From Eubacteriales bacterium (GTDB taxonomy: Bacteria > Bacillota > Clostridia > Oscillospirales > CAG-272), in contig JAZRXB010000330.1 in NCBI GenBank assembly GCA_045600005.1, positions 1-54,098 on the forward strand: a stretch of 54,098 bases of DNA, given 5' to 3'. Below are positions 4,845-36,943 of the stretch, piece after piece. The notes under the pieces are model-generated. The model saw nothing but the letters and a program-made list of their open reading frames with translations. It was not told where the DNA came from and searched no databases. The position numbers and the translations under genes are program-made. The first letter of the stretch is position 1. Each line of letters starts with the position of its first letter.

Positions 4845-5252
4845 ATGAATTTCGGTTTTTTCGCAGTACCTTCGCTTCTGACCTCTGAGGCGGGCGGTCT
4901 GTTCGGCGCGGAGATGGGCAGCACGCTCACCTTCGGCGAACGGATCTCGACCGGTCTCACCGTCATGGGCGTCGGTATGCTGATCATTTTCTCGGTCCTC
5001 GCGCTGCTCTGGGGCATTCTGACGCTGTTCCGCATCGTGTTCTACGATATCCCGAACAAGAAGAAGGCCGCCGCTCCCGAAACGGAGCCGGAGCCCGCTG
5101 CCATTGAATCGCCCGAACCCGATTCCTCCGAAGAGGACGACGGCGAGCTGGTCGCCGCCATCACCGCCGCCATTACGCTGATGATGGAAGAAGAAGGCAA
5201 GCCGCAGACATCCTTCCGCGTCGTCTCGTTCAGACGCACGGCATCCAAATAA
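4845..5252 (+). CDS. oadG: OadG/MmdD-type membrane anchor subunit of Na+-translocating decarboxylase
   Basis: Single TM (GVGMLIIFSVLALL), Pro/Glu linker, ELVAAITAAI...FRVVSFRR. Confidence 0.85.
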   Translation: MNFGFFAVPSLLTSEAGGLFGAEMGSTLTFGERISTGLTVMGVGMLIIFSVLALLWGILTLFRIVFYDIPNKKKAAAPETEPEPAAIESPEPDSSEEDDGELVAAITAAITLMMEEEGKPQTSFRVVSFRRTASK

Positions 5253-5259
5253 CTGAGTA

Positions 5260-5443
5260 TAGCCGATTGTTTAATGCTTTAAGATGACAAACGTTATAAT
5301 AAAATCCGTTTTTATGTCGGCTTTGCCGACATAAAAACACCTCTAAGGCGAGCCCTCGCGCCGAGGGGAGCCGACAAAACAACGTTTTGTCGGCGGCGAT
5401 AAGCGCGAGTACCGATTGTAAAACGCAGTTTTACAATCGACTA
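5260..5443 (+). mobile_element. Miniature non-autonomous element (MITE-like), copy 1
   Basis: Terminal inverted repeats TAGCCGATTGT/ACAATCGACTA; flanked by direct repeat AATAACTGAGTA (5248-5259 and 5444-5455); homologous to three other copies. Confidence 0.88.
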
Positions 5444-5472
5444 AATAACTGAGTATATAAGGAGATCATATC

Positions 5473-5850
5473 ATGAGAAAATTCAATGTCACCGTAAACG
5501 GCAACGCATATGAAGTCGAAATCGAGGAAGTCGGCGCAGAAGCAGCCGCTCCCGCAGCCATCGCAGCTCCCGCGGCAGCTCCCGCAGCTCCCAAGGCAGC
5601 GGCTCCCAAGAAGGCGGCTCCCGCAGGCGCAGCCGGCGCAGTCAAGGTCAGCGCGCCGATGCCCGGCAACATCCTGAAGGTCAACGTTTCGGCCGGTCAG
5701 GTTATCAAGAGCGGCGAACTCCTCTGCATCCTCGAAGCCATGAAGATGGAAAACGAAATCCTCGCTCCGCAGGACGGCACGGTCGCATCGGTCAACGTTC
5801 AGAAGGGCGCATCGGTCAACTCCGGCGACGTACTCTTTACCCTCAACTGA
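5473..5850 (+). CDS. Biotin carboxyl carrier protein
   Basis: LEAMKMENE biotinylation motif; Ala/Pro linker. Confidence 0.95.
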   Translation: MRKFNVTVNGNAYEVEIEEVGAEAAAPAAIAAPAAAPAAPKAAAPKKAAPAGAAGAVKVSAPMPGNILKVNVSAGQVIKSGELLCILEAMKMENEILAPQDGTVASVNVQKGASVNSGDVLFTLN

Positions 5851-5881
5851 GAGCCGGCCGGTTCATAACTGAGGTGTTCAT

Positions 5882-7060
5882 ATGGGTGAAATGTTTTCAA
5901 ACCTGATCCAGTCGACGGGCTTCTATCAGCTCGCGCAGGATCCGGTCATGCTCGTCAAGACGCTGATCATGTACGGCTTCGTCATCGCCTTGATGTATCT
6001 TGCCATTGCAAAGGGCTTCGAGCCTCTGCTTCTTCTCCCGATCGCATTCGGTATGCTGCTTGCCAACCTGCCCGGCGCGAACCTGCTCCACATGGACCTG
6101 TTCCTCGGTGAGCATCTGGACGGCGGCAGGATCTTACAGGAAGGCAACCTGATCGACTTCCTGTATCTCGGCGTCAAGCTCGGCATCTATCCGTCCCTGA
6201 TTTTCATGGGCGTCGGCGCCATGTCCGACTTTACCGCTCTTATCGCCAACCCGAAGAGCCTTCTGATGGGCGCGGGCGCACAGCTCGGCGTTTTCGTCGC
6301 ATACTTCGGCGCACTGCTGATGGGCTTCGTTCCCGAAGCGGCCGCTTCCATCGGCATCATCGGCGGCGCGGACGGTCCTACCGCCATCCTCGTCACCAAG
6401 ACGCTCGCTCCGACGCTGCTCGGCGCGATCGCTATCGCCGCGTATTCGTACATGGCGCTGATTCCGATCATCCAGCCGCCTTTCATGAAGCTGCTCACGA
6501 CCAAGAAGGAACGTGAGATCGTCATGAAGGAGCTGCGTCCGGTCTCCCGCATTGAAAAGCTCATCTTCCCGGTCCTCGTCGCAGCGGTCGTTTCGATCAC
6601 GCTTCCCGACGCGGCTCCGCTGATCGGCTTCTTGATGTTCGGCAACCTTCTGAACGTCTGCGGCGTGACCGAGCGTCTGTCGAAGACCGCTCAGAACGAG
6701 CTGATGAATATCGTCACGATCTTCCTCGGCGTTTCGGTCGGCGCGACCGCGAACGCGGAGAACTTCCTCTCCTTCAAGACCATTGCCATTGTCGTTCTCG
6801 GTCTGATCGCCTTCTCGATCTCGACCTGCGGCGGTCTGCTGACCGGTAAGCTGATGTGCTTCTTAACGCACGGCAAGATCAATCCTCTGATCGGTTCCGC
6901 AGGCGTTTCCGCCGTTCCGATGGCGGCGCGCGTTTCGCAGGTTCAGGGGCAGAAGGTCAATCCCGCGAACTTCTTACTGATGCACGCAATGGGTCCGAAC
7001 GTGGCGGGCGTTATCGGTTCCGCCGTCGCGGCAGGCGTGTTCCTGTCTCTCTACAAATAA
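5882..7060 (+). CDS. oadB: Na+-translocating decarboxylase beta subunit
   Basis: FEPLLLLPI, IGIIGGADGPT, AYSYMAL, GVSAVPMAARV, MGPNVAGVIGS. Confidence 0.96.
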   Translation: MGEMFSNLIQSTGFYQLAQDPVMLVKTLIMYGFVIALMYLAIAKGFEPLLLLPIAFGMLLANLPGANLLHMDLFLGEHLDGGRILQEGNLIDFLYLGVKLGIYPSLIFMGVGAMSDFTALIANPKSLLMGAGAQLGVFVAYFGALLMGFVPEAAASIGIIGGADGPTAILVTKTLAPTLLGAIAIAAYSYMALIPIIQPPFMKLLTTKKEREIVMKELRPVSRIEKLIFPVLVAAVVSITLPDAAPLIGFLMFGNLLNVCGVTERLSKTAQNELMNIVTIFLGVSVGATANAENFLSFKTIAIVVLGLIAFSISTCGGLLTGKLMCFLTHGKINPLIGSAGVSAVPMAARVSQVQGQKVNPANFLLMHAMGPNVAGVIGSAVAAGVFLSLYK

Positions 7061-7087
7061 CCGTACAATCCGGAGGAATAACGATCT

Positions 7088-8485
7088 ATGGCTAAAGTAA
7101 AAATTACCGAAACCGTCTTACGTGACTCGCATCAGTCCCTGATCGCGACCCGTATGACGACCGATGAAATGCTTCCGATCCTCGCCGAAATGGATAAGGT
7201 CGGCTACTATTCCCTCGAAGCATGGGGCGGCGCTACCTTCGATTCCTGTATGCGTTTCCTCAACGAGGACCCGTGGGACAGACTGCGCAAGATCCGCGAG
7301 CAGGTCAAGAACACCAAGCTCCAGATGCTTTTCCGCGGTCAGAACAGCCTCGGCTACCGTCATTACGCCGACGACGTGGTGGAATACTTCGTACAGAAGT
7401 CCATCGCCAACGGCATTGACATTCTCCGTATCTTCGACGCTCTCAACGACCCGAGAAACCTGAAAACCGCGATCAACGCGACGAAGAAGGAAAAGGGTCA
7501 CGTTCAGGCGGCGGTCAGCTATACGACCGGTCCGGTCTACACGACCGAATACTACACCAAGTACGCGAAGCAGCTCGAGGAAATGGGCGCGGATTCGCTC
7601 TGCATCAAGGATATGGCAGGTCTCTTAAAGCCCTACGACGCTTACGAGCTGGTCAAGGCGCTCAAGGAAACCGTCAAGATCCCGATCCAGCTTCACACGC
7701 ACTACACCGCAGGTCTCGCTTCGATGACCGCTCTCAAGGCGATCGAAGCAGGCGTCGACGTGGTGGATACCGCGATCTCCCCGATGGCAATGGGTACGTC
7801 CCAGCCGCCTACGGAGCCGCTGGTCGCAACGCTCGCCGGCACACCCTACGATACGGGTCTCGACTTGAAGCAGCTCGACAAGATCTCCAAGTATTTCATG
7901 CCGCTTCGTGAGAAGTATCTCGCCAGCGGTCAGCTCGACCCGAAGGTCCTGAAGGTCGACGTCAACGCGCTGATGTATCAGGTCCCGGGCGGAATGCTGT
8001 CGAACCTCGTCTCCCAGCTCAAGCAGGCGGGCAAGTCCGACAAGCTGCTCGAGGTGCTGGAGGAAGTGCCGCGCGTCCGTGCGGACGCAGGCTATCCGCC
8101 GCTCGTCACCCCGTCCAGCCAGATCGTCGGTACGCAGGCTGTGTACAACGTCATCATGGGCGAACGCTATAAGACGGTCACGAAGGAATTCAAGGGCATC
8201 ATCCGCGGCGAATACGGCAAGACGCCGATGCCGATCAAGCCGGAATTCCAGAAGCAGATCATCGGCGACGCTACGCCGATCACCTATCGTCCGGCAGACG
8301 ATCTCAAGCCGGAGCTGGAAGCGCTCCGCGAAAAGGTCAAGCCGTGGGCAGTTCAGGACGAGGACGTTCTGTCCTACGCTCTGTTCGAGCAGGTTGCGAC
8401 CAAGTTCTTCGAGTGGAGAAAGAACCAGCAGTACGGTCTTGACGCCGATCACGCCGACGCTGAAAAGGGCATCCACACCGTCTGA
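7088..8485 (+). CDS. oadA: Oxaloacetate decarboxylase alpha / pyruvate carboxyltransferase subunit (no biotin domain)
   Basis: LRDSHQSL, WGGATFD, IKDMAG, HTH, QVPGGM, PPLVTPSSQIVG. Confidence 0.93.
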   Translation: MAKVKITETVLRDSHQSLIATRMTTDEMLPILAEMDKVGYYSLEAWGGATFDSCMRFLNEDPWDRLRKIREQVKNTKLQMLFRGQNSLGYRHYADDVVEYFVQKSIANGIDILRIFDALNDPRNLKTAINATKKEKGHVQAAVSYTTGPVYTTEYYTKYAKQLEEMGADSLCIKDMAGLLKPYDAYELVKALKETVKIPIQLHTHYTAGLASMTALKAIEAGVDVVDTAISPMAMGTSQPPTEPLVATLAGTPYDTGLDLKQLDKISKYFMPLREKYLASGQLDPKVLKVDVNALMYQVPGGMLSNLVSQLKQAGKSDKLLEVLEEVPRVRADAGYPPLVTPSSQIVGTQAVYNVIMGERYKTVTKEFKGIIRGEYGKTPMPIKPEFQKQIIGDATPITYRPADDLKPELEALREKVKPWAVQDEDVLSYALFEQVATKFFEWRKNQQYGLDADHADAEKGIHTV

Positions 8486-8506
8486 TCCTGATAGACGGTA
8501 ATAGTT

Positions 8507-8558
8507 GAAAGTCCCTGCGGGAACCGGTAAAAAACGGTTCCCGCAGGGACTTTCTTTT
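8507..8558. terminator. Bidirectional intrinsic terminator
   Basis: 20-bp stem GAAAGTCCCTGCGGGAACCG / CGGTTCCCGCAGGGACTTTC plus TTTT. Confidence 0.9.
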
Positions 8559-8575
8559 AGATCGACCGCGCAGAT

Positions 8576-9232
8576 TCAGGATAAAAGCGCTGCTTTCAGC
8601 TGTTCAGGCGTGTCGAGAAGGACCGATGCGCCGTGGTTTAACAGAAACTCCCTCGACCGGAAGCCCCATGTCACCGAAAGACAGGGAAGTCCGGCGTTTT
8701 TCGCGGTCTCGATGTCAACGTCTGAGTCGCCGACATAGACGGCGGCGGAGCGTTCGACCGCAAGATCGGTTAAAATGGCGTTGACCGAATCGGGCGCGGG
8801 CTTTTTGCGCACGCCCGCCGCTTCGTTTTCACCGACGGCGGCGTCGAATAATCCCGGAAAATACCGCTCGCAGAGGTCCTTTACCGCGAAATCCGCCTTG
8901 TTGGAGACGACGGCGGTGCGGCAGCCGGCGTCACGCAGCGCGGCGAGCAGTTCGGGAATGCCGTCGTAAGGGCGCGTTTTGTCGGCGCAGTGGGCTTTGT
9001 AGTGGGTCTTGAAGAACGCGAACACTTCGTCGGTCAGATCTTTTGACGTTCCGGCAGGGACCGAGCGCTCGATCAGCAGACGGATGCCGTTCCCGATAAA
9101 GCCGCAGATCACGTCGGTGGGAAGGGGCGGCAGAGAATGGGCGGAAAGAGCGGCGTTGACTGAGGCGGCAAGATCGTCGAGCGTGTCGAGGACGGTCCCG
9201 TCAAGGTCGAATATGACAAGCTGGATTTTCAT
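8576..9232 (-). CDS. HAD-family phosphatase (phosphoglycolate phosphatase-like)
   Basis: FDLDGT, VVSNK, KKPAPD, YVGDSDVD, VTWGF. Confidence 0.9.
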   Translation of the reverse strand: MKIQLVIFDLDGTVLDTLDDLAASVNAALSAHSLPPLPTDVICGFIGNGIRLLIERSVPAGTSKDLTDEVFAFFKTHYKAHCADKTRPYDGIPELLAALRDAGCRTAVVSNKADFAVKDLCERYFPGLFDAAVGENEAAGVRKKPAPDSVNAILTDLAVERSAAVYVGDSDVDIETAKNAGLPCLSVTWGFRSREFLLNHGASVLLDTPEQLKAALLS

Positions 9233-9259
9233 GATGCTTCTCCCATGATATGTTATGGT

Positions 9260-9457
9260 TAGCCGATTGTTTAATGCTTTAAGATGACAAGCGTTATAAT
9301 AAAATCCGTTTTTATGTCGGCTTTGCCGACATAAAAACTCCTCTAAAGCGAGCCATGGCGAGCCCTCGCGCCGAAATGGGGAGAGCTGACAAAATAAATT
9401 TTGTCAGCAGCGATAAGCGCGAGTACCGATTGTAAAACGCAGTTTTACAATCGACTA
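9260..9457 (+). mobile_element. MITE-like element, copy 2
   Basis: Same TIRs; flanked by TATGTTATGGT direct repeat (9249-9259 and 9458-9468). Confidence 0.88.
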
Positions 9458-9471
9458 TATGTTATGGTATC

Positions 9472-9500
9472 AGTATAGCACGCCGGACGCTTCGCCGCAA
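9472..9500 (-). promoter_or_regulatory. Probable promoter of HAD gene
   Basis: TTGCGG-17bp-TATACT with TG extended -10 on minus strand. Confidence 0.5.
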
Positions 9501-9598
9501 GCGGCAAAACTGTCGAGGTTTTCGGTGAAAACAGCATGAAATTTGTCGGAAACGTCAGTAAAGTTCCGGGAAAACAGTCTGTTTTTAGCGGCAGGGGC

Positions 9599-9627
9599 TT
9601 GATTTTTTGCGCTTCTCATGATATAAT
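9599..9627 (+). promoter_or_regulatory. sigmaA-type promoter
   Basis: TTGATT-17bp-TATAAT with TGn extension. Confidence 0.7.
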
Positions 9628-9689
9628 ACCGGTAAGGTGTCATAACAGGCGCGTCTTATCCCCAAATACATCAAGAGAGGTAAAAGATC

Positions 9690-10673
9690 ATGTTGAATGC
9701 AGCAATGCTGAGCAAATGGCACGTCCATGCGGGCGGTTACGCGAAGAAGTTACAGGAGACCGGCAAGGTCGACATCAGGGTCGTCTGGGACGACGACGCC
9801 GAGCGCGGCTCGAAATGGGCGGCAGAGCTTGGCTGCGCATTCGAGCCGGAGCTTGAAAAGGTCCTCGCGCGCGAAGACATCGAAGCCGTCTTCGTCGATA
9901 CGCCGACCACCGCGCACAAGGATATCATCATCGCCGCCGCCAAAGCCGGAAAAAACATCTTCACCGAAAAGGCGCTCTGCCCGACGGTCGCCGAATGTCT
10001 GGAAGTCAGGAAAGCCGTCGAGGAAGCCGGCGTCATCTTTACCATCTCCTTCCCGGAACGCTTCTCTCCGATCTTCAAGTTTGCGAAGAAGATGATCGAC
10101 GAGGGCGCGTTCGGCACGATCTCCACGATCCGCCGCAGAAAAGCGCATTCCGGCGTGTCCGACCACTGGCTGCCGGGATACTGGTTCGAGGAGAAGGACG
10201 CGGCGGGCGGAGCCATGATGGACCTCGGCTGTCACCCGATGTACGATCTCGCATACTTCGGCGGCAAGGTCAAACGCATCACCGCGCTGTTCAACGCGCC
10301 GCTCGGCAGCAGGGTCGACGAAAACGCCGTTTCGGTCATGGAATTTGAAAACGGCATCATCGGCATTTCCGAGACCGGCTTCATGTCCTACGCTTCCCCC
10401 GAAATTTTCGAGATCTACGGCACGGAGGGTTCGCTCATCCGTCACGGAAACGACGTGAAGTTCCGCTCGGCGAAGCTCGCGCCCTACACGAACGACTGGA
10501 TCACGCCCACTCTGCCGAACGCTGACCCGATCCCGCTCTTACAGTTTGTCGACGCCTGCATAAATAAGTCGGGTTCGCCGAAGCTCTGCGGCATCGACGA
10601 CGCCATCGACCTCACCAGACTGCTCGAAAACGCCTATATCGCAGATCGTACCAACACGATCGTGACCCTGTGA
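9690..10673 (+). CDS. Gfo/Idh/MocA-family oxidoreductase
   Basis: TPTTAH, GKNIFTEKAL, GGAMMDLGCH motifs. Confidence 0.9.
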   Translation: MLNAAMLSKWHVHAGGYAKKLQETGKVDIRVVWDDDAERGSKWAAELGCAFEPELEKVLAREDIEAVFVDTPTTAHKDIIIAAAKAGKNIFTEKALCPTVAECLEVRKAVEEAGVIFTISFPERFSPIFKFAKKMIDEGAFGTISTIRRRKAHSGVSDHWLPGYWFEEKDAAGGAMMDLGCHPMYDLAYFGGKVKRITALFNAPLGSRVDENAVSVMEFENGIIGISETGFMSYASPEIFEIYGTEGSLIRHGNDVKFRSAKLAPYTNDWITPTLPNADPIPLLQFVDACINKSGSPKLCGIDDAIDLTRLLENAYIADRTNTIVTL

Positions 10674-11257
10674 GCGCCATGAAGCTTGAAAAATATCACC
10701 GCGCCGCCGAAGCGGGCGACAATGAGTTCTCGATTTTTGTCAATTACGGCGTGAAAAAGAAAGCGGAAGGGAAGTATAAGCTCCACCGGATCCTGATGGT
10801 CTGCGCCTATGTCCTGTTTGCTCTGGCATTTTTCGCGTTCTTCGTTTCGATGCATATGCCCATGTTCATCGCCATTCTCCCGCTGCTCACGTGGATCCTG
10901 GTCTACTTTACGTGGTATCTTGTCTCCATTGAGTACGAATACACCATTGTCGGCGGCGTGATAAAGATGATGGAGGTGCATTCGATGCGGTATTTCCGCG
11001 AGCTTGCGGAGGTTCGGCTCAGCGGCGCGTCGAAGATCGCGCCCTATGACGGCGACCATAAGAAGGACGCGGACGACCCGTCCGTCGTCAATAAGATCTG
11101 GGGCGTTTCGTCTGCCGACGCGCAGGATATCTACTATATTCTGTACGAAAACGAAGCGGGCGAAAGATCCGCCGTCTTCTTTGAGGCGACCGAAAAAACG
11201 CTGAAGGTCATCAGGTATTACAACGATCAGGTCGTCATGACCAAGACGAGATATTGA
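10670..11257 (+). CDS. Two-TM membrane protein (DUF6106-like)
   Basis: Two hydrophobic segments followed by IEYEY; coupled to both neighbours by overlapping start/stop codons. Confidence 0.65.
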   Translation: MSAMKLEKYHRAAEAGDNEFSIFVNYGVKKKAEGKYKLHRILMVCAYVLFALAFFAFFVSMHMPMFIAILPLLTWILVYFTWYLVSIEYEYTIVGGVIKMMEVHSMRYFRELAEVRLSGASKIAPYDGDHKKDADDPSVVNKIWGVSSADAQDIYYILYENEAGERSAVFFEATEKTLKVIRYYNDQVVMTKTRY

Positions 11258-12024
11258 TGGCCGGGTCTTTTGAGGCGGGATTTTACCGTCTGGCGGACGA
11301 GCTGGCGGCGGGATATGAGACGATTCTGGGAAACCGGTTCGTCGGGTTTTACGTCCATGGTTCGCTGGCGTTCGGATGCTTTCATCCGGCGGTGAGCGAC
11401 CTCGATTTCATCGCCGTGGTCAGCGAGCCGCCGTCGCAGCGTCAGAAGGAGCGCCTTCTGGCGCTGCTTTTCGAGCGCGAACCGGACGCGCCCGCCAAGG
11501 GCTTTGAAATGAGCGTGGTCGAGGAGAAGTTCTGCCGGGATTTCGTCTATCCGACGCCGTATGAATTCCACTATTCGCCGACTCACCGTGCGCGGGCAAA
11601 GGCAGACCCGTCCGCCTTTGCCGCTTCCATGCACGGCGTGGACCGCGACCTTGCGGCGCATTTCACGGTGCTGATGAAGGTCGGGGCGACGATCCGTGGA
11701 AAAGCGCTGTCCGAAGTGTTCGGCGAGGTGCCGGAGGAAGCGTATGACGACAGTCTGATGAACGATCTTGCCGACGCGCGGGACGGGTTGTGTGAGGATA
11801 CGGTCTATTTTGCGCTGAATTTCTGCCGCGTACTGGCGTGGCGAAGCGAAAAGAAGGTCCTGTCCAAGAAAAGCGGCGGGGAATGGGGACTCAAAAATCT
11901 GCCCTCCGTTTATCATCCGGTCATCCGGTCGGCGCTGGACGCCTATGCGGGCGCGGACGTCACCCCCGATCGGGCGTCGGCGCTCCGGTTCCGGGCGTAT
12001 GTATTTGAAGCGCTCGGTCTCTGA
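11257..12024 (+). CDS. Nucleotidyltransferase, aminoglycoside adenylyltransferase-like (DUF4111)
   Basis: YVHGSLAFG...SDLDF Pol-beta motif; C-terminal LNFCRVLAW...LSKKSGGEWG. Confidence 0.8.
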   Translation: MAGSFEAGFYRLADELAAGYETILGNRFVGFYVHGSLAFGCFHPAVSDLDFIAVVSEPPSQRQKERLLALLFEREPDAPAKGFEMSVVEEKFCRDFVYPTPYEFHYSPTHRARAKADPSAFAASMHGVDRDLAAHFTVLMKVGATIRGKALSEVFGEVPEEAYDDSLMNDLADARDGLCEDTVYFALNFCRVLAWRSEKKVLSKKSGGEWGLKNLPSVYHPVIRSALDAYAGADVTPDRASALRFRAYVFEALGL

Positions 12025-12043
12025 CGCCGGACGACCGAAAATA

Positions 12044-12086
12044 CCCTGCTCCAAGGATAAAAATCCGAACGGAGCAGGGCATTTTT
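12044..12086. terminator. Bidirectional terminator
   Basis: CCCTGCTCC / GGAGCAGGG stem with T tract, between convergent genes. Confidence 0.7.
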
Positions 12087-12110
12087 CATGAAAGGGGACG
12101 CTTTTGACGA

Positions 12111-12830
12111 TCAGCCGCGGTAGGCTTCCTCATCGCAGAAGACGGTGACGTCCGGATGCAGTAGGAGAAGCGTTGCAGGAAGCGAGGTCGTGATCCTGCC
12201 GTTCAGCAGACCGGTGATCGCATCGCGCTTGTTCTGACCGCTGGCAAGCAGGATGATCCTGCGCGCGCGCATGATCGACTGGATGCCCATCGTCAGGGCG
12301 TGGCGCGGCACCTCGGCGGAGCTCTGGAAGAAGCGGGAGTTGGCTTCGATGGTGCTTTCGGCAAGAGCCGTCAGATGCGTTTCGCAGATCAGCCCTTCTG
12401 CCGGTTCGTTGAAGCCGATGTGACCGTTGCCTCCGATGCCGAGGACCTGAAGGTCGATGCCGCCGTCCGCTTCGATCGCGGCGTCATAGGCGGCGCATTC
12501 TGCGGCAGGGTCGGACGCTTCGCCGTTCAGAAGATGCGTGTTGTCAGGGTCGATCCCGATCTGTCCGAACAGATTATGATCCATAAAATAGCGGTAGCTC
12601 TGCGGATTGGTCGGCTTGATCGGATAGTATTCGTCGAGGTTGTAGGTCCGGACTTCCGAGAAATCCAGTCCGTTCCGGCTCATGTCGACGAGACAGCGGT
12701 ACATTCCGAGCGGCGTGGAGCCGGTGGCAAGTCCGAGGATGCAGTTCGGTTTTTCACGGACCACACGGGAGACCGTTTCGGCGGCGCGGCGGGACATTTC
12801 ATCATAGTTTTTGCAGACACAAAGTTTCAT
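12111..12830 (-). CDS. nagB: Glucosamine-6-phosphate deaminase
   Basis: LGLATGSTP, NLDEY, LGIGGNGHIGFNEP, ALTMGI; start set at MKLCV with AAAGGA RBS. Confidence 0.95.
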   Translation of the reverse strand: MKLCVCKNYDEMSRRAAETVSRVVREKPNCILGLATGSTPLGMYRCLVDMSRNGLDFSEVRTYNLDEYYPIKPTNPQSYRYFMDHNLFGQIGIDPDNTHLLNGEASDPAAECAAYDAAIEADGGIDLQVLGIGGNGHIGFNEPAEGLICETHLTALAESTIEANSRFFQSSAEVPRHALTMGIQSIMRARRIILLASGQNKRDAITGLLNGRITTSLPATLLLLHPDVTVFCDEEAYRG

Positions 12831-12864
12831 GGCGTTTCCGATTCCTTTCGGTTTGATCGGTTCT

Positions 12865-12893
12865 ATTATACACCGATCCGGTCGGTAATGCAA
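12865..12893 (-). promoter_or_regulatory. nagB promoter
   Basis: TTGCAT-17bp-TATAAT on minus strand. Confidence 0.7.
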
Positions 12894-30245: not shown

Positions 30246-31498
30246 CCGTATATATGGAATTGCCGGTATATGCAAGAGGCGTTATTTCACTGTGGTTTGT
30301 CCTGCTGCTGCTGTTCTCCTGCGTGGCGGTATTTCGCCTGTTTTCTCAAAAGAATTATCTTCTGGCGATCCCCGCCGTCTGCATTCCGGCTGTGAGCTAC
30401 GTTGGGGTGCAGTATTGCGTGCATGTCAACAAATGCCATGAATACGGTTTCACATCGCCGCGCCTGCCGTCCCTCTTTGGCGGGATGAGCTTTATATGGC
30501 TGATCCTCCTTGGGCTGCTTTTGACAGCGCTGGCTGCGTGGCTGTTCCTTTACTCGGAACGGTGGCGTAAAATACACGTAAATGCCGCATCCCTGAAAGA
30601 AGGCATGGACGATCTTCCCTCCGGGCTGTGCTGGTACTTTGAGGACGGGACCGTTGCGCTCAGAAACCGCGTCATGGAGCGTCTCTGCTATGCGGTCACA
30701 GACCATGAACTGTACGACGGCGCTTTGCTGGAAGCGGAGCTGCGCCGCCGGATGGACGGAAACAACGTCATGACGCTCCCGGACGGTACGGCGTGGAGTA
30801 TCAATCTGAACACCGTGGAAAAGGACGGCGCGGCGCTTCGTGAGATCTGTGCCAACGACATTACGGAGGAATACAAAACGACCCTGCTTCTGACGGATAA
30901 GCAGAGAGAAGCGCGGCTTGCCAATGAGAAGCTGACGGCATACAGCCGGGAGCTGGCGCAGATGATCACGGCGGGAGAGATCCTTGCCGCAAAGGTACGC
31001 ATCCATGACGAGCTGGGGCAGGGGCTTCTGCTCACGAGAAAATACCTGCTTCGCGGCGGTACGGCAGAGGATAAGGAAAAGCTGCTGTATGTGCTTCGCA
31101 GGAACAGCTTGCTTCTGGAAAGCAGCCGCGGCGAGAGCGGACGGTCTTATCTGGACATGATCCTGGAAGCGGCTTCCGATATGGGCGTCCGCCTTGTCAT
31201 AGACGGCAGAATGCCGGAAAAGCGTTCGGTCAGCGATGTTATTACGACTGCCATTCACGAAAACCTCACCAACACCATCCGCCACGCTCAGGGCGACGAA
31301 ATGAGGGTGGAGCTTGTAAACGAACGCGGGCTGCTCACGGCGGTATTCACCAACAACGGCATGACCCCCTCTGCACCCGTGGAGGAACGGGGCGGACTTG
31401 CCATGCTCCGCTCATTGGTTGAAGCCGCGGGCGGAGAAATGACAATCGAGCATACGCCGGAATACAAAATGACGCTCCGGTTTGAGATCGAAGAATGA
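30242..31498 (+). CDS. Membrane histidine kinase, HisKA_3 (NarX/DesK-like)
   Basis: H-box KVRIHDELGQ, N-box ENLTNTIRHA, NNG, GGL; GTG overlaps upstream TGA. Confidence 0.85.
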   Translation: MTVYMELPVYARGVISLWFVLLLLFSCVAVFRLFSQKNYLLAIPAVCIPAVSYVGVQYCVHVNKCHEYGFTSPRLPSLFGGMSFIWLILLGLLLTALAAWLFLYSERWRKIHVNAASLKEGMDDLPSGLCWYFEDGTVALRNRVMERLCYAVTDHELYDGALLEAELRRRMDGNNVMTLPDGTAWSINLNTVEKDGAALREICANDITEEYKTTLLLTDKQREARLANEKLTAYSRELAQMITAGEILAAKVRIHDELGQGLLLTRKYLLRGGTAEDKEKLLYVLRRNSLLLESSRGESGRSYLDMILEAASDMGVRLVIDGRMPEKRSVSDVITTAIHENLTNTIRHAQGDEMRVELVNERGLLTAVFTNNGMTPSAPVEERGGLAMLRSLVEAAGGEMTIEHTPEYKMTLRFEIEE

Positions 31499-31502
31499 AC
31501 GA

Positions 31503-31724
31503 TAGCGGATTGTTTAATGCTTTAAGATGACAAACGTTATAATATAATCCGTTTTTTATGTCGGCTTTGCCGACATAAAAACACCTCTAAGGCGAGCCGG
31601 GGCGAGCCCTCGCGCCGATATGGGGAGAGCCGACAAAACAAATTTTGTCGGCTGACAAAACTTTGTTTTGTCGGCGGCGATAAGCGCGAGTATCGATTGT
31701 AAAACGCAGTTTTACAATCGCCTA
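31503..31724 (+). mobile_element. MITE-like element, copy 3 (extra internal hairpin)
   Basis: TAGCGGATTGT...ACAATCGCCTA ends; AGAATGAACGA direct repeat at 31492-31502 and 31725-31735. Confidence 0.88.
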
Positions 31725-31750
31725 AGAATGAACGACGTAAGGAGGACACT

Positions 31751-32367
31751 ATGGTACGGGTTCTGATATGCGACGATCAGGTCATATCCAGACAGCTTTT
31801 GAAATGATCGTAAACGGTTCTGAAAACTATAAGCTGGTAAAATCTCTGGGATCCGCAAAGGTGGCGGATATCTACTGCTCAGGCGGCAGCGTCGACCTGA
31901 TCCTGATGGACATCGTAATGAACGACATGAACGGGCTGGACGCGGCGGAAATGATCAAAAGGAAATACCCCAAGATCAAGATCATCATCGTGACCTCCAT
32001 GCCGGACGCGGCGTTCATCGAACGGGCAAGGCAGATCGGCGTGGATTCCTTCTGGTATAAGGAGGTGCAGGACGCGCCCATGCTGGACGTGATGGACAGG
32101 ACGATGGCGGGCGAACACATCTACCCGGACAGCGCGCCCGTGACGAAGCTGGGGCTTGCCGAAAGCACGGAGTTTACGGAACGGGAGCTTGATACGCTCC
32201 GAAAGCTGGTCAGCGGTCTTTCCGACAAAGAGATCGCTGAGCAGCTTGGGATCAGCTACAACACGGTGCGGGTGTATATCTCAAGTATGCTGCAGAAAAC
32301 AGGCTTCCAGTCCCGGACGGAGCTTGCCTTAAAAGCCGCAAAGAGCGGTATCGTGGTCCCCGAATAA
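31751..32367 (+). pseudogene. NarL/LuxR-type response regulator with 1-nt frameshift
   Basis: AAGGAGG-ATG reads MVRVLICDDQVISRQL then stops; remainder (FEMIV...LMDIVM...GLD...VTS...FTERE...HTH) is in another frame; junction at T4 run 31797-31800. Confidence 0.85.
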
Positions 32368-32378
32368 AGCCGGGGGAC

Positions 32379-32425
32379 AAAAACTGCCGACAGTGCGCGG
32401 GATGCGCAGACTGCCGGCAGTTTTT
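32379..32425 (+). terminator. Intrinsic terminator
   Basis: AAAACTGCCG / CGGCAGTTTT stem followed by T-rich tract. Confidence 0.75.
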
Positions 32426-32449
32426 CTGCTTTTTTTGAAATTTTTCTGC

Positions 32450-32498
32450 CGGACTAATCGGTTTCAGTGATGCGCGGCAGAAAAAAACAGTCTATAAT
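32450..32498 (+). promoter_or_regulatory. Activator box plus -10 (copy B)
   Basis: CGGACTAATCGGTTTCAGTGATGCG-18bp-TATAAT. Confidence 0.75.
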
Positions 32499-32640
32499 AT
32501 GGTAAACAGGCGCGGAAAGGACGGCGACGCCGCCGTGAGGGGGCTTTCCTGTCATATCCGCGGCGAGCCGCAGGTCCCGTACCGCCTGTAAATACGGCAA
32601 CACACATGATTCAATTTTATTTTTTCAGGAGGAATCCAAT

Positions 32641-35547
32641 ATGAAGAAGATAGTCCTTAGTTTCATGTTCTGTCTCTTGATGTGCCTGCTGCTGATGCCG
32701 ACGACGGTCTTCGCGGCGGACATCGCCAGCGGCGCCGGCTGGAACCTGAGCGACGACGGCGTTCTGCACATCACCGGCGCTGTGTCCGGAGGATTCGGAT
32801 TAACGTATGCGCAGAAGCTGCAGGTCACATCCGCAGTTACAACGCCGGGTGCTTCGATCTCCAGCGGCAATCAGTTGTTCTATGGATTTGAAAATATGAC
32901 TTCCGCTGATTTAAGTGATCTCGATACCGGCAGCGTGATCAGCATGTACGGTATGTTCGCCGGCTGCAGCAGTCTTACTGCTCTTGACTTAAGCGGCTTT
33001 GACACCGGCAGCGTGACTAGTATGGAGTATATGTTCTTACAATGCAACAGTCTTACCTCTCTTGATGTAAGCGGCTTTGATACCGGCAGCGTGATCGATA
33101 TGGGTCGCATGTTCTATAACTGCAACAGTCTTACCACTCTTGACGTCAGCGGTTTTGATACCGGCAAAGTGACCAACATGACCGGCATGTTCGATAACTG
33201 CAGCGGTCTTACCTCTCTTGACTTAAGCGGCTTTGACACCGGCAGCGTGATCAGCATGGACAGTATGTTCGCCGGCTGCAGCAGTCTTACTGCTCTTGAC
33301 TTAAGCGGCTTTGACACCGGCAGCGTGATCAGCATGGACAGTATGTTCGCCGGCTGCTTCAGTCTTACTGCTCTTGACTTAAGCGGCTTTGACACCGGCA
33401 GCGTGATCAGCATGGACAGTATGTTCTCCAGCTGCATCGGTCTTACTGCTCTTGACTTAAGCGGCTTTGACACCGGCAAAGTGACCGACATGGACATGAT
33501 GTTCGTTAGCTGCCACAGTCTTACTGCTCTTGACTTAAGCGGCTTTGACACCGGCAGCGTGATCAGTATGGGGCATATGTTCTATGGCTGCAACAGTCTT
33601 ACCTCTCTTGATGTAAGCGGTTTTGACACCGGCAGCGTGACTAATATGGAGTATATGTTCTATAACTGCAGCAGCCTTACCTCGCTTGGAATAAGGCCTG
33701 ATATTCTGACCAAAAATGTATTCGATATTATTGCCATTCGTTCACCCTGGCAGAAGCAGGGAACCACAGACTTATATTATACTACGGCTGATCTTCAGGC
33801 GGTGACCAATAATCTGGTCCTGTGCGTTCCTACCAGCTACACCGTCACCGTTCAGAACGACGGGAACGGTACGGCGTCGGCAGACAAAACGTCCGCAATT
33901 TTTAATGAGACTGTCACTCTGTCCGCAGCGCCGAACACGGGCTATCATTTCAAGGAATGGCAGTCCTCCGACGTGACGGTCGCCGGCGATACCTTTGCCA
34001 TGCCGGCGAAGAACGTTACCGTAAAGGCGGTTTTTGAAGTCGATCCTCTGACCGGTACCGTCACGATCACCGGTACCGCAAAGTACAATGAAACACTGAC
34101 GGCGAGCGTTACCGATACGAACAACACCGGAATCCTGTCCTATCAGTGGGAACGCGACGGCTCCGCCATTACCGGCGCAACAGCCGATACCTATACGCTG
34201 ACCGCCGACGACGTCGGCAGGATCATCACGGTTTCGGTTTCCAGCAGCGTGGAGAGCGGCACGATCACCAGCGCGGCTTCCCCCGCGGTTGAAAAGGCAG
34301 ACGGTCCCGCCGCGCCCGCCGGTCTGACCGCCATGGACTGCACGACCATAGCAAACGATGACGGCAGGATCACCGGTACCACAAGCGCAATGGAATACAG
34401 CACGGACAGCGCCTTTTCATCCGGTGTGTCCTGCTCCGGAACCGAGATCACCGGTCTTTCCTTTGGAACCTACTATGTCCGCATTGCGGAGACCGCGACC
34501 CATAAGGCGGGCGAGGCGGCTGCTCTGATCGTCAAGGAGTTTTTCCCTACGATCACCTTTGACGCAAACGGCGGCAGCGTAACTCCCGCCAGCGATATTG
34601 TCGGCGCAGATCACAGACTCGCTTCTCTGCCTGTGCCTGTCCACAGCGACGACAGTTACAGCTTCAACGGCTGGTACACGGAGGCAGTCAACGGCTCCCT
34701 GGTCACGGCCGGCAAGGTATTCACCGAAGACGCCACGATCTATGCGCATTGGAAATATATCGGCGGCAGTCATATCTTCGTTACCTATACGCTGTCCTTC
34801 AACACCAACGGCGGCTCTGAGATCGGCGGTATTCTGGATATCTACGGTACGGTCGTTGATCTTGGCGGATACGTTCCCGAAAAGAGCGGCTATGACTTCG
34901 GCGGCTGGTACGCCGATCCGGCGCTGACCAGACCTGTTGACGAGATCAGGCTCACCGACAACGCGACCGTTTACGCAAAGTGGATCGACAGGATCCCGTT
35001 CGGCGACATCCGCAAATCCGATCCGTTCTATGACGATGCTGTCTATATGTACAATAAGGGTCTGATGGTCGGCGTGTCCGACACGGAATTCGCACCGTAC
35101 ACCACCCTGAGCCGCGGCATGATCGTGACGATCCTGTACCGTCTCGAAGGTGAACCCGCGTTCACGAACGACAACATCTTCACCGACGTGGAAGATGGCA
35201 GCTGGTACGAGAAGGCTGTCGTCTGGGCAAACGGCAGCGGCATCGTCCTCGGTTACGGCGACGGCATATTCGGACCGGACGATCCCGTGACCCGCGAACA
35301 GATGGCGGCGATCCTGTACCGCTACGCGCAGTACAGGGGTTATGATGTGACCATCGACGAGAACACGAAATTCACGAGCTTTGACGATGTGTCCGATATC
35401 TCCGAATACGCGCAGGCTCCGATGTTCTGGGCGCTGGATAACGGACTGATCGACGACGAGAACGGCCGGCTGTATCCTGCCGATAACGCCACCCGCGCGG
35501 TCGTCGCGGCATTCTTCCATCGCTTCTGCGAAGCGTTCGCAAAGTAA
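32641..35547 (+). CDS. BspA/DUF285-type LRR surface protein with InlB-B-like repeats and three SLH domains
   Basis: Signal peptide ending VFA; ten 26-aa repeats; ITFDANGG and LSFNTNGG repeats; SLH motifs (FAP...LSRG, FGPDDPVTREQMA, PADNATRA). Confidence 0.9.
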   Translation: MKKIVLSFMFCLLMCLLLMPTTVFAADIASGAGWNLSDDGVLHITGAVSGGFGLTYAQKLQVTSAVTTPGASISSGNQLFYGFENMTSADLSDLDTGSVISMYGMFAGCSSLTALDLSGFDTGSVTSMEYMFLQCNSLTSLDVSGFDTGSVIDMGRMFYNCNSLTTLDVSGFDTGKVTNMTGMFDNCSGLTSLDLSGFDTGSVISMDSMFAGCSSLTALDLSGFDTGSVISMDSMFAGCFSLTALDLSGFDTGSVISMDSMFSSCIGLTALDLSGFDTGKVTDMDMMFVSCHSLTALDLSGFDTGSVISMGHMFYGCNSLTSLDVSGFDTGSVTNMEYMFYNCSSLTSLGIRPDILTKNVFDIIAIRSPWQKQGTTDLYYTTADLQAVTNNLVLCVPTSYTVTVQNDGNGTASADKTSAIFNETVTLSAAPNTGYHFKEWQSSDVTVAGDTFAMPAKNVTVKAVFEVDPLTGTVTITGTAKYNETLTASVTDTNNTGILSYQWERDGSAITGATADTYTLTADDVGRIITVSVSSSVESGTITSAASPAVEKADGPAAPAGLTAMDCTTIANDDGRITGTTSAMEYSTDSAFSSGVSCSGTEITGLSFGTYYVRIAETATHKAGEAAALIVKEFFPTITFDANGGSVTPASDIVGADHRLASLPVPVHSDDSYSFNGWYTEAVNGSLVTAGKVFTEDATIYAHWKYIGGSHIFVTYTLSFNTNGGSEIGGILDIYGTVVDLGGYVPEKSGYDFGGWYADPALTRPVDEIRLTDNATVYAKWIDRIPFGDIRKSDPFYDDAVYMYNKGLMVGVSDTEFAPYTTLSRGMIVTILYRLEGEPAFTNDNIFTDVEDGSWYEKAVVWANGSGIVLGYGDGIFGPDDPVTREQMAAILYRYAQYRGYDVTIDENTKFTSFDDVSDISEYAQAPMFWALDNGLIDDENGRLYPADNATRAVVAAFFHRFCEAFAK
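32896..33675 (+). repeat. Ten tandem 78-bp coding repeats
   Basis: Consensus LTxLDLSGFDTGSVxxMxxMFxxCxS. Confidence 0.95.
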
Positions 35548-35566
35548 TATCAGTCATATCAAATGA

Positions 35567-35594
35567 AAAGCGGCTGCCTTCGGGCAGCCGCTTT
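35567..35594. terminator. Bidirectional terminator
   Basis: AAAGCGGCTGCC-TTCG-GGCAGCCGCTTT. Confidence 0.88.
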
Positions 35595-35632
35595 GCCTTC
35601 TGTCAGAAGCCCGTATGGGGTGAAGAAGGTCG

Positions 35633-36562
35633 TTATTCGGCGAACATCGGGGTGGAGAGATACCGGTCGCCGGTGTCGGGAAGAAGCGCGACGATCATTT
35701 TGCCGCGGTTCTCCGGGCGCTTTGCGAGGATTGAAGCCGCGTGAAGCGCCGCGCCGGACGTAATGCCGACGAGAACGCCTTCAAGCCGTGCGGCGGCTCT
35801 TCCTGCCGCGAACGCATCCCCGTCCGTGACCGGAAGGATCTCGTCGTAAACCGTGCGGTCGAGAATTTCGGGGACGAAGTTCGCGCCGATGCCCTGGAGC
35901 ATATGCGCGCCCGCTTCGCCCTTCGTCAGAAGCGGCGAGGAAGCCGGTTCGACGCCGACGATCTTCACGTTCGGATTCCGCTCTTTCAGATACCGTCCGA
36001 TGCCGGTCAGCGTGCCGCCCGTGCCGACGCCTGCGACGAACAGGTCGATCTTCCCGTCGGTGTCGTTCCAGATCTCGGGACCGGTCGTGTCGTAGTGCGC
36101 TTTCGGATTGGCGGGATTGACGAACTGACCGGGAATGAAGCTGCCGGGGATGGATTTTGCCAGCTCGTCCGCCTTTTCGACCGCGCCGGTCATGCCCTTC
36201 GAGCCGCCGGTCAGAACGATCTCGGCGCCGTAGGCTTTTAAGAGACTGCGGCGTTCGACGCTCATCGTTTCGGGCATGGTGAGGATGACATGATAACCGC
36301 GCACGGCGGCGACCATCGCGAGTCCGATGCCGGTGTTGCCGCTGGTCGGCTCGATGATCGTCGCGCCGGGCGCGAGCAGCCCCTTTGCTTCGGCGTCGTC
36401 GAGCATGGCTTTTGCGGCGCGGTCCTTGACGCTTCCGGCGGGATTGAGGTATTCGAGCTTGGCAAGCACGCGCGCGTCGAGGTCGTACTGCTTTTCAAAA
36501 TTCTTCATCTCAAGAAGCGGCGTGCCGCCGATGAGATCGGTGATCTGTTCATGGATTTTCAT
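35633..36562 (-). CDS. cysK: Cysteine synthase A
   Basis: NPAGSVKDR PLP lysine, EPTSGNTG, GVGTGGT, LQGIG, PDTGDRYLST. Confidence 0.96.
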   Translation of the reverse strand: MKIHEQITDLIGGTPLLEMKNFEKQYDLDARVLAKLEYLNPAGSVKDRAAKAMLDDAEAKGLLAPGATIIEPTSGNTGIGLAMVAAVRGYHVILTMPETMSVERRSLLKAYGAEIVLTGGSKGMTGAVEKADELAKSIPGSFIPGQFVNPANPKAHYDTTGPEIWNDTDGKIDLFVAGVGTGGTLTGIGRYLKERNPNVKIVGVEPASSPLLTKGEAGAHMLQGIGANFVPEILDRTVYDEILPVTDGDAFAAGRAAARLEGVLVGITSGAALHAASILAKRPENRGKMIVALLPDTGDRYLSTPMFAE

Positions 36563-36598
36563 AGAAAGTTCCTTTCCGTTTCGGTATATTCCGTTTTC

Positions 36599-36627
36599 AT
36601 TATAACGCGGCGTGTCGCCGGTGTCAA
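36599..36627 (-). promoter_or_regulatory. cysK promoter
   Basis: Perfect TTGACA-17bp-TATAAT on minus strand. Confidence 0.85.
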
Positions 36628-36688
36628 GACCCCTTCCGGCGCAAAGAGGGAAAAATCGCAAATTTCGCACCGAAACCCGGACAGAGAC

Positions 36689-36717
36689 TTGACAAATCGC
36701 CCCCTTCGTGCTAAACT
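36689..36717 (+). promoter_or_regulatory. Promoter of glycyl-radical enzyme operon
   Basis: TTGACA-17bp-TAAACT with TGn extension. Confidence 0.75.
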
Positions 36718-36751
36718 TAAAATAGCCGTTTTGCCGCGACAAAACGAAAAG

Positions 36752-36916
36752 GTGTCGATTGTTAAATGCCTTGAGATGACGAGCGTTATAATAAAAACAC
36801 CTCTAAGGCGAGCAAAGCGAGCCTTCGCGCCGATATGGGGAGAGCCGACAAAACAAATTTTGTCAGCGGCGATAAGCGCGAGTTCCGATTGTAAAACGTA
36901 GTTTTACAATCGTTTT
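36752..36916 (+). mobile_element. MITE-like element, copy 4 (degenerate, first hairpin deleted)
   Basis: Shares GATTGT..AATGC..AGATGAC..GTTATAAT, CACCTCTAAGGCGAGC, GATAAGCGCGAG and the terminal palindrome; eroded flanking repeat AAACGAAAAG / AAACGAATAG. Confidence 0.8.
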
Positions 36917-36943
36917 AAACGAATAGACAAGGAGATATGCCGG

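Follow-up and report, generated by a model that had tools for sequence, protein, structure and literature searches.

MITEs are defined by short terminal inverted repeats and a target-site duplication around a sequence without an open reading frame (ORF). Bacterial MITEs derive from IS4- and IS5-type elements, as with MIC231 and IS231 in the Bacillus cereus group. Target duplications of 10–13 bp are typical of IS4-family DDE transposases; Tn5, of the same family, shows little target specificity. Other transposons select their targets: Tn7 inserts at glmS with TnsD, and IS1397 and ISKpn1 insert in REP units. The Correia elements of Neisseria, ERIC/IRU and pneumococcal RUP/BOX are small, gene-proximal, co-transcribed repeats; they have TA or no duplications, and to our knowledge no fixed distance to a ribosome-binding site has been reported for them.

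Here we describe a family of elements that is unannotated in gut and rumen Clostridia. Like MIC231, these elements are short, have no ORF, end as an autonomous DDE insertion sequence (IS) does, carry duplications of the partner's length (∼10–12 bp), and would be moved in trans. Unlike MIC231, they have an interior unrelated to the IS, with a conserved core of several hairpins that occurs in at least 13 genera, and their insertion is tied to Shine-Dalgarno (SD) boxes. With Correia elements, ERIC/IRU and RUP/BOX, none of which was matched by Rfam here, they share their abundance, the formation of hairpins, an intergenic position that is often within transcription units, and the use of either orientation. 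The likeness to Tn7 and IS1397/ISKpn1 lies in a DDE-type element whose insertions keep a constant distance to an identifiable host sequence and in the single orientation of the full IS; the mark here, however, would be a 6-nt motif, and no separate targeting protein is encoded. Because this motif precedes most genes, it would provide thousands of possible sites instead of one site or a repeat family. Judging from sequence comparisons, the family is very probably a non-autonomous MITE with a 198-bp consensus, mobilised by an IS with the same ends and landing upstream of SD boxes. The SD-proximal targeting and the conserved structured core of the MITE interior are new; our literature search, outside which lay subscription journals and ISfinder/TnPedia, turned up neither a published IS or MITE with SD sites as its target nor the family itself.

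Four copies, c1 to c4, were identified in the window, by which we mean the whole stretch of 54,098 nt analysed and whose numbering is used for all coordinates (Table 1). A sequence-only reading of the window had described four homologous elements with imperfect 11-bp terminal inverted repeats and a different flanking direct repeat at each copy, and had seen no transposase; all of this was borne out. It had noted neither the SD-proximal insertion sites nor the conserved structured core. The copies can be aligned along their entire length, the terminal repeats TAGCCGATTGT and ACAATCGACTA are complementary at 10 of 11 positions, the flanking repeats measure 10–12 bp with one mismatch in the c4 pair, and the window contains no transposase. 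The left duplication of c1 includes the TAA stop codon of the upstream gene (5250–5252), and the right one is followed by TATAAGGAG and then by an ATG at 5473. There is no long ORF in the MITE; in the ORF listing, one ORF of 70 aa overlaps c3. The 12-mer of the terminal hairpin occurs eight times in the window against 0.30 expected, a count reached in none of 100 shuffles.

Table 1. Features of the four MITE copies, in window coordinates
Feature	Position	Strand	Remarks
MITE copy c1	5260..5443	+	184 bp; decarboxylase operon, in the spacer of 20-odd nt that separates an OAD_gamma from a biotinyl-carrier gene (Pfam context)
c1 target-site duplication AATAACTGAGTA	left 5248-5259, right 5444-5455	.	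perfect
MITE copy c2	9260..9457	+	198 bp; upstream of a minus-strand HAD-hydrolase gene (start 9232)
c2 duplication TATGTTATGGT	9249-9259 and 9458-9468		
c2 left terminal inverted repeat TAGCCGATTGT	9260..9270	+	same sequence as the initial 11 nt at each end of the partner IS
c2 hairpin 1	9308..9338	.	14-bp stem; on the minus strand a T-rich tail follows, terminator-like
c2 conserved core	9365..9423	.	long-range helix of CTCGCGC (9365-9371) with GCGCGAG (9417-9423), encloses hairpin 3
c2 hairpin 3	9385-9408		inside the long-range helix of the core
c2 terminal hairpin and right end	9427..9457	+	inverted inner terminus copy CGATTGTAAAAC, 3 nt, right terminal repeat GTTTTACAATCGACTA
MITE copy c3	31503..31724	+	222 bp; hairpin 3 duplicated internally; flanked by an ORF of 418 aa and a gene for a LuxR-type response regulator
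c3 duplication AGAATGAACGA	31492-31502 and 31725-31735		left copy contains a TGA stop (31496-31498)
MITE copy c4	36752..36916	+	165 bp; without hairpin 1; eroded ends; upstream of a PFL-like glycyl-radical enzyme gene
c4 duplication AAACGAAAAG / AAACGAATAG	36742-36751 and 36917-36926		one mismatch

The window's genome is a draft assembly of 3.76 Mb, 92.8% complete. The sequence-only reading had predicted many copies genome-wide, and blastn located the family at 166 places, with 93 end-to-end copies of 130–260 bp (consensus 198 nt), many of them with their own duplications. MITE subfamilies carry the 16-nt TAGNCGATTGTAAAAC at both ends. Duplications were scored in the 90 copies with full flanks as direct repeats of 9–14 bp exactly at the element boundaries: the duplication is perfect in 38 copies and has no more than one mismatch in 57, and by this rule none is recognisable in 33. 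Against the 10–13 bp given earlier, the usual length is 10–11 bp and the range 9–14 bp.

Unoccupied loci in which the duplicated sequence stands once, which the earlier reading had named as a check, were found for c2 and c1. The c2 element is absent from a 654-nt contig of a related strain (sequencing run X1), which covers 9005–9245 and 9457–9867 with two letters between, and contigs of run X2 show the identical joint. The sequencing runs that yielded this joint covered a small fraction of the window (0.05–0.17) and yielded no usable contig for c1. At the species level, c1 is absent from the orthologous spacer in all eight congeneric loci aligned. No empty site was recovered for c3, whose locus has no counterpart in the 31 congeners searched, or for c4, whose flanks fall on separate contigs in the relatives searched. 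The duplications and empty sites establish the mobility of the family. Its members are MITEs: they are short and without a transposase ORF, have terminal inverted repeats, copy-specific duplications and empty sites, and share their ends with an autonomous element.

The earlier reading had proposed a search for a transposase gene bounded by TAGYCGATTGT ends; an autonomous, transposase-bearing element with the same TAGCCGATTGT ends was recovered. Its termini occur at eight contig ends of the window's genome, as four End-A and four End-B junctions, which pair into four insertions by duplications of 10, 11, 10 and 11 bp; 98–140 nt are visible per IS end. Since these ends alone are visible and a protein search of the 92.8% complete genome returned no match to the transposase gene, we infer, rather than observe, an intact partner IS in this genome. 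A full copy of 1738 bp with the 11-bp duplication AATAATGTAGT is present in a metagenome (L017:731-2468), and its single long ORF (L017:868-2295) encodes the 475-aa transposase. Among 59 long-ORF loci examined, 12 have perfect repeats, and their duplications are 10–13 bp long. In three named genomes checked, the IS occurs once or in few copies. The MITE and the IS are alike in sequence at the termini only; they share ends, duplication length and site preference.

The transposase passes the Pfam cutoffs for DUF772 (53 bits) and DDE_Tnp_1 (29.4 bits; PF01609 cutoff 23). Residues D148, D285 and E417, together with Y410, R413 and K424, are invariant across 19 homologues, and Y410, R413, E417 and K424 make up the motif Y-2-R-3-E-6-K. 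No PDB chain has a sequence match to the protein, and the best solved fold for its predicted model is Tn5 transposase (4dm0_A; E 5.2e-4, probability 1.00). Likeness to Tn5/IS50 of the IS4 family thus extends to the predicted fold, DDE_Tnp_1, the Y-2-R-3-E-6-K motif and a putative staggered cut of the 9-bp class; however, the TM-score is 0.35 and the identity 10%, and the present transposase has an extra conserved Cys cluster (C330, C356, C370, C372 and C376). The best NCBIfam match is the IS1182 model NF033551, which scores 70.6 bits (cutoff 270), mainly over residues 27–129; IS1182 membership was rejected on this score. IS5 membership was rejected as well, the NCBIfam IS5 models giving at most 23.1 bits against cutoffs of 110–275. 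The suggested link to the IS4 family is not established in the narrow sense: DDE_Tnp_1, the Y-2-R-3-E-6-K motif and the 9–13-bp duplication speak for it, but there is no curated IS4 model among the five NCBIfam matches at E up to 0.01. Going by these models, the transposase is predicted to have a Tn5-like fold and is closest to the IS1182 model, yet under its cutoff.

The IS1182 family (ISPse1, IS1272) resembles the present IS in the N-terminal DUF772 region and in a protein of ∼475–490 aa. According to a table in PMC3281130, ISPse1 makes 4-bp repeats, and PMC5678879 describes IS1272 as replacing target inverted repeats with no duplication; compared with these accounts of two members, the present IS differs in duplicating 10–13 bp at an SD-proximal target. 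No name for the transposase was found among 120 homologues listed (three are 'hypothetical protein') or in seven clusters, and plasmid records of homologues are labelled just 'transposase' or unlabelled.

The insertion sites follow a common rule. In 67 of 79 MITE copies, one end is within 45 nt of a start codon preceded by an SD, and the distances cluster at 25–31 nt. At 60 of 85 MITE sites (71%), GGAG starts 13–20 nt away from one of the ends; for random positions the count is 1153 of 20000, and for AT-rich 11-mers it is 12066 of 203166 (5.9%). The strict motif is missing from this interval at 25 of the 85 sites, and any SD-like motif within 6–30 nt is missing at six. For the IS in other genomes, from many Clostridia, GGAG is found at 12–22 nt (mode 17) in 41 of 46 distinct left-end flanks, the remaining five having SD variants in the same interval; right-end flanks have it in 0 of 22 cases. 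Related MITEs from other genera have a duplication in 11 of 15 cases, and 10 of those 11 are SD-adjacent. The rule is valid across many species. The MITE is inserted both ways, with the left end beside the SD in 38 copies and the right end in 34, whereas the IS is inserted one way.

We propose that a 1.74-kb IS in the same genome, with TAGCCGATTGTAAAA termini, mobilises the MITE in trans, as their shared properties suggest. Its 475-aa DDE transposase would cut the target with a stagger of 10–12 bp, giving rise to the duplication, and the cut would fall in an A/T-rich stretch ending 4–7 bp upstream of the SD box. Cutting at this position would lead copies to accumulate in 5′ leaders and intercistronic operon spacers. 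The site is probably read by the transposase itself and not produced by selection sorting the insertions afterwards. The opposite case, in which the transposase of the IS that moves the MITE prefers A/T-rich DNA only and leader insertions alone survive selection, appears improbable. It would fit the A/T-rich duplicated sequence in a genome of 58.5% G+C. Every insertion site seen is that of a survivor, so selection could contribute to the rule, and some selection is already needed for an IS in one orientation beside a MITE in both. However, the 5.9% of AT-rich 11-mers with GGAG at the right distance falls short of the 71% of insertions, and the offset is narrow (mode 16–17 nt). The rule is kept in low-G+C hosts (L017 flanks are 34% G+C; 41 of 46 sites, many species), and other neutral intergenic DNA, for instance between convergent genes, is unused.

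The fixed orientation of the full IS may arise from selection: in the IS a terminator-like hairpin follows the transposase gene, the left end alone has an outward −35-like hexamer, and the transposase gene is always divergent from the neighbouring gene. Outward hybrid promoters at the element ends were rejected: they are consensus matches only, and we do not rely on them because the predicted start lies at or within the SD.

The interior of the MITE has a conserved hairpin architecture with compensatory changes. Hairpin 1 is present in ∼88% of copies. The core, in which the unpaired stretches CGA..GGGGAG and GCGATAA are conserved, is found in at least 13 genera, and the left part of the element diverges. 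Single copies fold much better than shuffles on both strands (z ∼ −6). In an alignment fitted to the model, pairing reaches 94.0% of cells (79.0% in shuffles) and both sides have changed in 20 of 32 pairs (10.8 in shuffles); these values were reached in 0 of 500 shuffles of that alignment, and slid controls were far lower. RNAalifold on the 93 copies from this genome gave no information because the copies are too similar and the alignment is gappy. Comparison with Rfam, also proposed earlier, returned no gathering-threshold match in the window (best sub-threshold 24.4 bits against 80), and the e-value mode gave chance-level matches only.

These properties raise the question of whether the main role of the repeat is that of a cis-acting RNA module, host or domesticated, as a 5′-leader or intercistronic regulator for which transposition is merely the means of spread. 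Its core would bind a protein or small molecule, or control the stability of the mRNA and the translation of the following gene. The long-range helix, the conserved unpaired stretches and the compensatory changes over 13 genera, against a diverging left part, speak for such a module, as do the folding of single copies and the position of copies directly before ribosome-binding sites, operon-internal in 20 of 76 cases. We nevertheless consider this reading unlikely: the copies face the neighbouring gene either way without preference, no Rfam family is matched at threshold, and the genes adjoining c1–c4 in the window have no common function in their Pfam context. The core shows no strand asymmetry either (18 G-U pairs against 14 A-C pairs); these counts neither select a strand nor establish a role as RNA. 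Under the preferred reading of a MITE mobilised by the IS, the self-folding core could have been retained because transcripts pass through it without trapping the adjoining ribosome-binding site. A simple 'harmless read-through' story of this kind fits badly with the terminator-like minus strand of hairpin 1, which is transcribed in 13 of the 20 operon-internal copies and is not avoided in operons.

A further reading, which we offer tentatively as a possibility, is that the lineage specialises in translation-initiation regions. The transposase would read the SD in duplex DNA, perhaps through its Cys-rich insertion, and insert 4–7 bp upstream, and the core would have evolved into a portable leader module by which the downstream gene stays expressed or comes under common post-transcriptional control. 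Scores of genes per genome would then share an element-borne 5′ leader, and the core raises the question of whether leader MITEs rewire expression across many genes simultaneously. If the targeting is true, a DDE IS whose landing mark is a short host motif of near-universal occurrence would represent a new kind of target choice. It would explain how ∼170 places were reached in a 3.8-Mb genome without gene destruction, and would offer a natural means of inserting DNA directly upstream of coding sequences. How a Tn5-like enzyme can read a target would become a directly testable question.

That the repeats are REP/BIME-like palindromic units or recombination products, spread by other means and not transposons, is suggested by their richness in hairpins and by solo hairpins of ∼33 bp (seven elsewhere in the genome and one truncated at a contig start), but it is highly improbable, since copies carry their own 10–12 bp duplication, that sequence stands only once at empty sites, a transposase-bearing IS has identical ends and an equal duplication length, and a deletion running from the left end to the direct inner terminus copy accounts for the solo hairpins. 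Many contigs of the genome end inside the MITE/IS family, which breaks assemblies.

The four repeats on which the sequence-only reading was built are all present in the window at their places and can be aligned end to end, each enclosed by a direct repeat of its own (see the table); in the first and third copies (c1 and c3) an upstream stop codon falls inside this duplication. The left terminus reads TAGCCGATTGT in c1 and c2 and TAGCGGATTGT in c3, and is eroded in c4; the right terminus is ACAATCGACTA. At the right end the terminus recurs in inverted form further in, so that a 12-bp hairpin forms; the window holds 8 occurrences of the hairpin's 12-mer, where 0.30 would be expected. Copy c3 is 24-38 bp longer because of a tandem second hairpin 3, a structure of the element's interior. 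No fifth copy was found within the window.

The source genome is a 3.76-Mb draft in 377 contigs, of which C330 is the window. Blastn with the four copies as queries recovered 166 places in it, many of them at contig ends; 93 copies have both ends. Their identity to a 198-nt consensus is 87-99% (median 94%), and they differ by the presence of hairpin 1, a 10-nt GGCGAGCAGG unit and the second hairpin 3. Full flanks are available for 90 copies, and in 38 of them a perfect duplication of 9-14 bp exactly abuts the boundaries (10 bp in 17, 11 bp in 10, 12 bp in 6); allowing up to one mismatch gives 57, leaving 33 without a duplication by this rule. The genome also holds seven hairpins, about 33 bp long, that stand alone, plus one truncated by a contig start; all adjoin a Shine-Dalgarno (SD) box and are the remnant expected from a deletion between the left end and the directly oriented inner terminus copy. 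One 50-bp left end stands alone directly upstream of GAAAGGAG and looks like an internal deletion with the duplication retained.

Empty sites bear out the reading of these repeats as mobile. We aligned contigs from public sequencing runs to window positions 3500-11500. In a strain about 5% diverged, the element is absent from the c2 locus and a single TATGTTATGGT is left: one 654-nt contig spans 9005-9245 and 9457-9867 with two letters in between, and a second run, from the same study, has the same joint. The decarboxylase genes flanking c1 are matched in 27 of 31 congeneric genomes, and all eight aligned loci lack the element; their spacer consists of the gamma-subunit stop codon, 8-14 nt and AAGGAG. 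For c3 and c4 no comparable locus was found among the relatives searched.

A transposase gene between MITE-like ends was found, identifying an autonomous partner. Some TAGCCGATTGT ends in the source genome lead into two non-MITE sequences (four contig ends apiece), each running 98-140 nt up to the contig end; one of them, End A, contains a promoter-like TGGTATACT, a ribosome-binding site and an ATG. Their flanks pair into four insertions, each with a 10-11 bp duplication, of a longer element. The body of this element was not found in the source assembly, and a 33-nt piece of End A used as query retrieved three metagenome contigs. The complete insertion sequence (IS), on contig L017, is 1738 bp long, has TAGCCGATTGTAAAA at both ends and an 11-bp duplication, and holds a single 475-aa ORF. 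It resembles the MITE only over the terminal 11-16 nt. A strict script found perfect 10-13 bp duplications at 12 of 59 IS loci holding a long ORF. On another contig, L018, two IS copies are arranged nearly head to tail, with 10 nt between the right end of the first (..CAATCGACTA) and the left end of the second.

Essentially every insertion seen, both of the Tn5-like IS lineage and of its MITE, lies a few bases upstream of a ribosome-binding site. An AAGGAG-like sequence stands immediately past the duplication, on one side, in nearly all MITE copies, and for 67 of 79 copies the start codon of a long ORF, itself preceded by an SD box, is no more than 45 nt away from one end, mostly at 25-31 nt (the same loose test gave 408/3000 at random positions). 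GGAG begins 13-20 nt from an end, with a mode of 16-17, at 60 of 85 MITE sites, the control rates being 5.8% for random positions and 5.9% for AT-rich 11-mers; an SD-like motif is absent 6-30 nt from either end at only 6/85 sites. The end facing the gene is the left in 38 copies, the right in 34 and both in 7, and 20 of 76 copies occupy intercistronic spacers. At the four IS copies of the source genome a CTCCTT-like sequence adjoins End A. In other genomes GGAG is found 12-22 nt (mode 17) from the IS left end in 41 of 46 distinct flanks, the remaining five having AAGGGGG, AAGGTGG or AAGGATG at that place, or GGAG at 8 nt. On the right-end side, 0 of 22 flanks show GGAG at 12-22 nt. In the position logo of the left flanks, positions 1-13 are A-rich and 14-20 read AAAGGAG. 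The site rule belongs to the IS lineage. That AT-richness or survival of harmless insertions alone lies behind it is unlikely, since the offset stays narrow among transposases with 40-86% identity to the L017 protein and hosts of about 34% to 58% G+C. The mechanism of site choice is one that we infer.

In every full IS the transposase gene diverges from the neighbouring gene; the MITE has no orientation preference relative to its neighbour. The IS carries a terminator-like hairpin 3' of the transposase gene on its sense strand and an outward-facing, -35-like TTGACT 14 nt from its left end, so that the opposite orientation would cut the neighbour off; the single orientation would then arise by selection. 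A segment of the IS leader, TTTTTCTCCGT, complements the ribosome-binding site of the transposase gene itself, ACGGAGAAAAA, which lies about 60 nt further downstream; in transcripts entering from outside, the resulting stem could mask that site.

The transposase has DUF772 and DDE_Tnp_1 domains. No NCBIfam model passes its cutoff, the best, IS1182, scoring far below. All 19 homologues compared retain D148, D285, E417, a Y-2-R-3-E-6-K motif and five cysteines. The fold nearest to the predicted structure (pLDDT 77, pTM 0.76) is that of Tn5 transposase, followed by piggyBac; by sequence, no relative was found in the PDB. Among the candidates scored, 3514 proteins are homologous at E <= 0.001. Hosts at 79 loci include Oscillospiraceae, Lachnospiraceae, Ruminococcus and other Clostridia, and homologues with 38-46% identity are plasmid-borne in Butyrivibrio, Roseburia and Clostridium. 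Of the suggested IS4-type origin, the 10-11 bp duplications agree, whereas the models at hand cannot place the transposase in IS4, IS5 or IS1182. Within IS1182, the available text describes 4-bp repeats for ISPse1 (PMC3281130) and, for IS1272, replacement of target inverted repeats with no duplication (PMC5678879), in contrast to the 10-13 bp duplications of the partner IS.

The identification of the element as a MITE is supported; the site rule and a conserved structured core go beyond it. Available portions of a survey of IS-gene distances by family report no SD-proximal rule (PMC9208149), and the full-text literature, ISfinder and subscription journals aside, yielded no account of SD-directed insertion by an IS or a MITE, so an earlier description may exist.

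Single MITE copies fold at -70.9 and -68.8 kcal/mol on the two strands (z about -6 against shuffles). The MITE is not restricted to the source species. It is absent from 24 congeners searched, apart from one weak 34-nt match, but of 200 further genomes from the family 11 have a blastn match to its interior (positions about 39-198; 67-79% identity). With a covariance model, the core was detected in 14 of 150 other genomes (several copies in each) and in 13 of 97 genera, the window's own included. The MITE bears a structured core conserved across genera. Pairing is retained despite sequence change in the stems of hairpins 1 and 3 and in a 7-bp long-range helix, with compensatory changes at 12 of 46 pairs (9 sequences). 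In an alignment of 21 distinct sequences fitted to the model, pairing holds in 94.0% of cells (shuffles, 79.0%), both sides are changed in 20 of 32 pairs (shuffles, 10.8) and covariation scores 0.343 (shuffles, 0.104); these values are reached in 0 of 500 shuffles, and slid controls are far lower. G-U cells (18) and A-C cells (14) are balanced, so no strand is favoured. The helices are separated by conserved unpaired stretches, AAAAACACCT, CCGAGGGGAG and GGCGATAAG. Copies in other genera have a 9-12 bp duplication in 11 of 15 cases, 10 of these 11 SD-adjacent. A role for the core is something we infer.

Coordinates of elements and neighbouring features (C, contigs of the source genome; L, metagenome contigs)
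Feature	Location	Duplication or flanking repeat
MITE copy c1	window 5260-5443	AATAACTGAGTA
MITE copy c2	window 9260-9457	TATGTTATGGT
MITE copy c3	window 31503-31724	AGAATGAACGA
MITE copy c4	window 36752-36916	AAACGA(A/T)AG
Second hairpin 3 of c3 (GCCGACAAAAC..GTTTTGTCGGC)	window 31629-31675	
MITE left end alone	C21:10881-10930	CCAAACTTG (9 bp)
IS insertion, paired contig-end flanks	C217/C60	TGTTTTGTGG
IS insertion, paired contig-end flanks	C95/C168	AAAAAACTTAA
IS insertion, paired contig-end flanks	C87/C189	ATTATTTCAT
IS insertion, paired contig-end flanks	C142/C248	TCGCTTTATTA
Complete IS	L017:731-2468	AATAATGTAGT
Adjacent IS copies	L018:2285-2296	
Leader/ribosome-binding-site complementarity	L017:780-870; End A, C217:1-140 (minus strand)	
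Second MITE family, examples (none in window)	C21:15718-15816, C228:2000-2098, C312:178-276	4 bp
Third repeat	C21:15517, C34:2259, C117:1960, C226, C247:24981, C324:1535, C355, C363	TTAA
Response-regulator gene start after c3	window 31751-31800	
Palindrome	window 8507-8554	

Two other repeat families of the source genome are absent from the window. The second MITE family, 99 bp long with ends GGCAACCTCTAAAAAT.., has 35 near-full copies; it is flanked by 4-bp repeats and is several times nested in the first MITE at TTATAA/ATAA. The third repeat, with ends GGCATTACCGCACAGT, is inserted at TTAA within the left end of the MITE, and C34 has a 58-bp palindromic mini-version of it bounded by two TTAA. 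After c3, an ATG at 31751, 5 nt past AAGGAGG, opens MVRVLICDDQVIS followed by a stop, and the long ORF that encodes the receiver and GerE domains begins in a different frame, at 31768, without the usual N-terminal acidic pocket; this response-regulator gene looks frameshifted, which may be an assembly error. Past an ORF end at 8485, a 20-bp perfect palindrome with T tails faces the end of a minus-strand HAD gene and is likely a bidirectional terminator.
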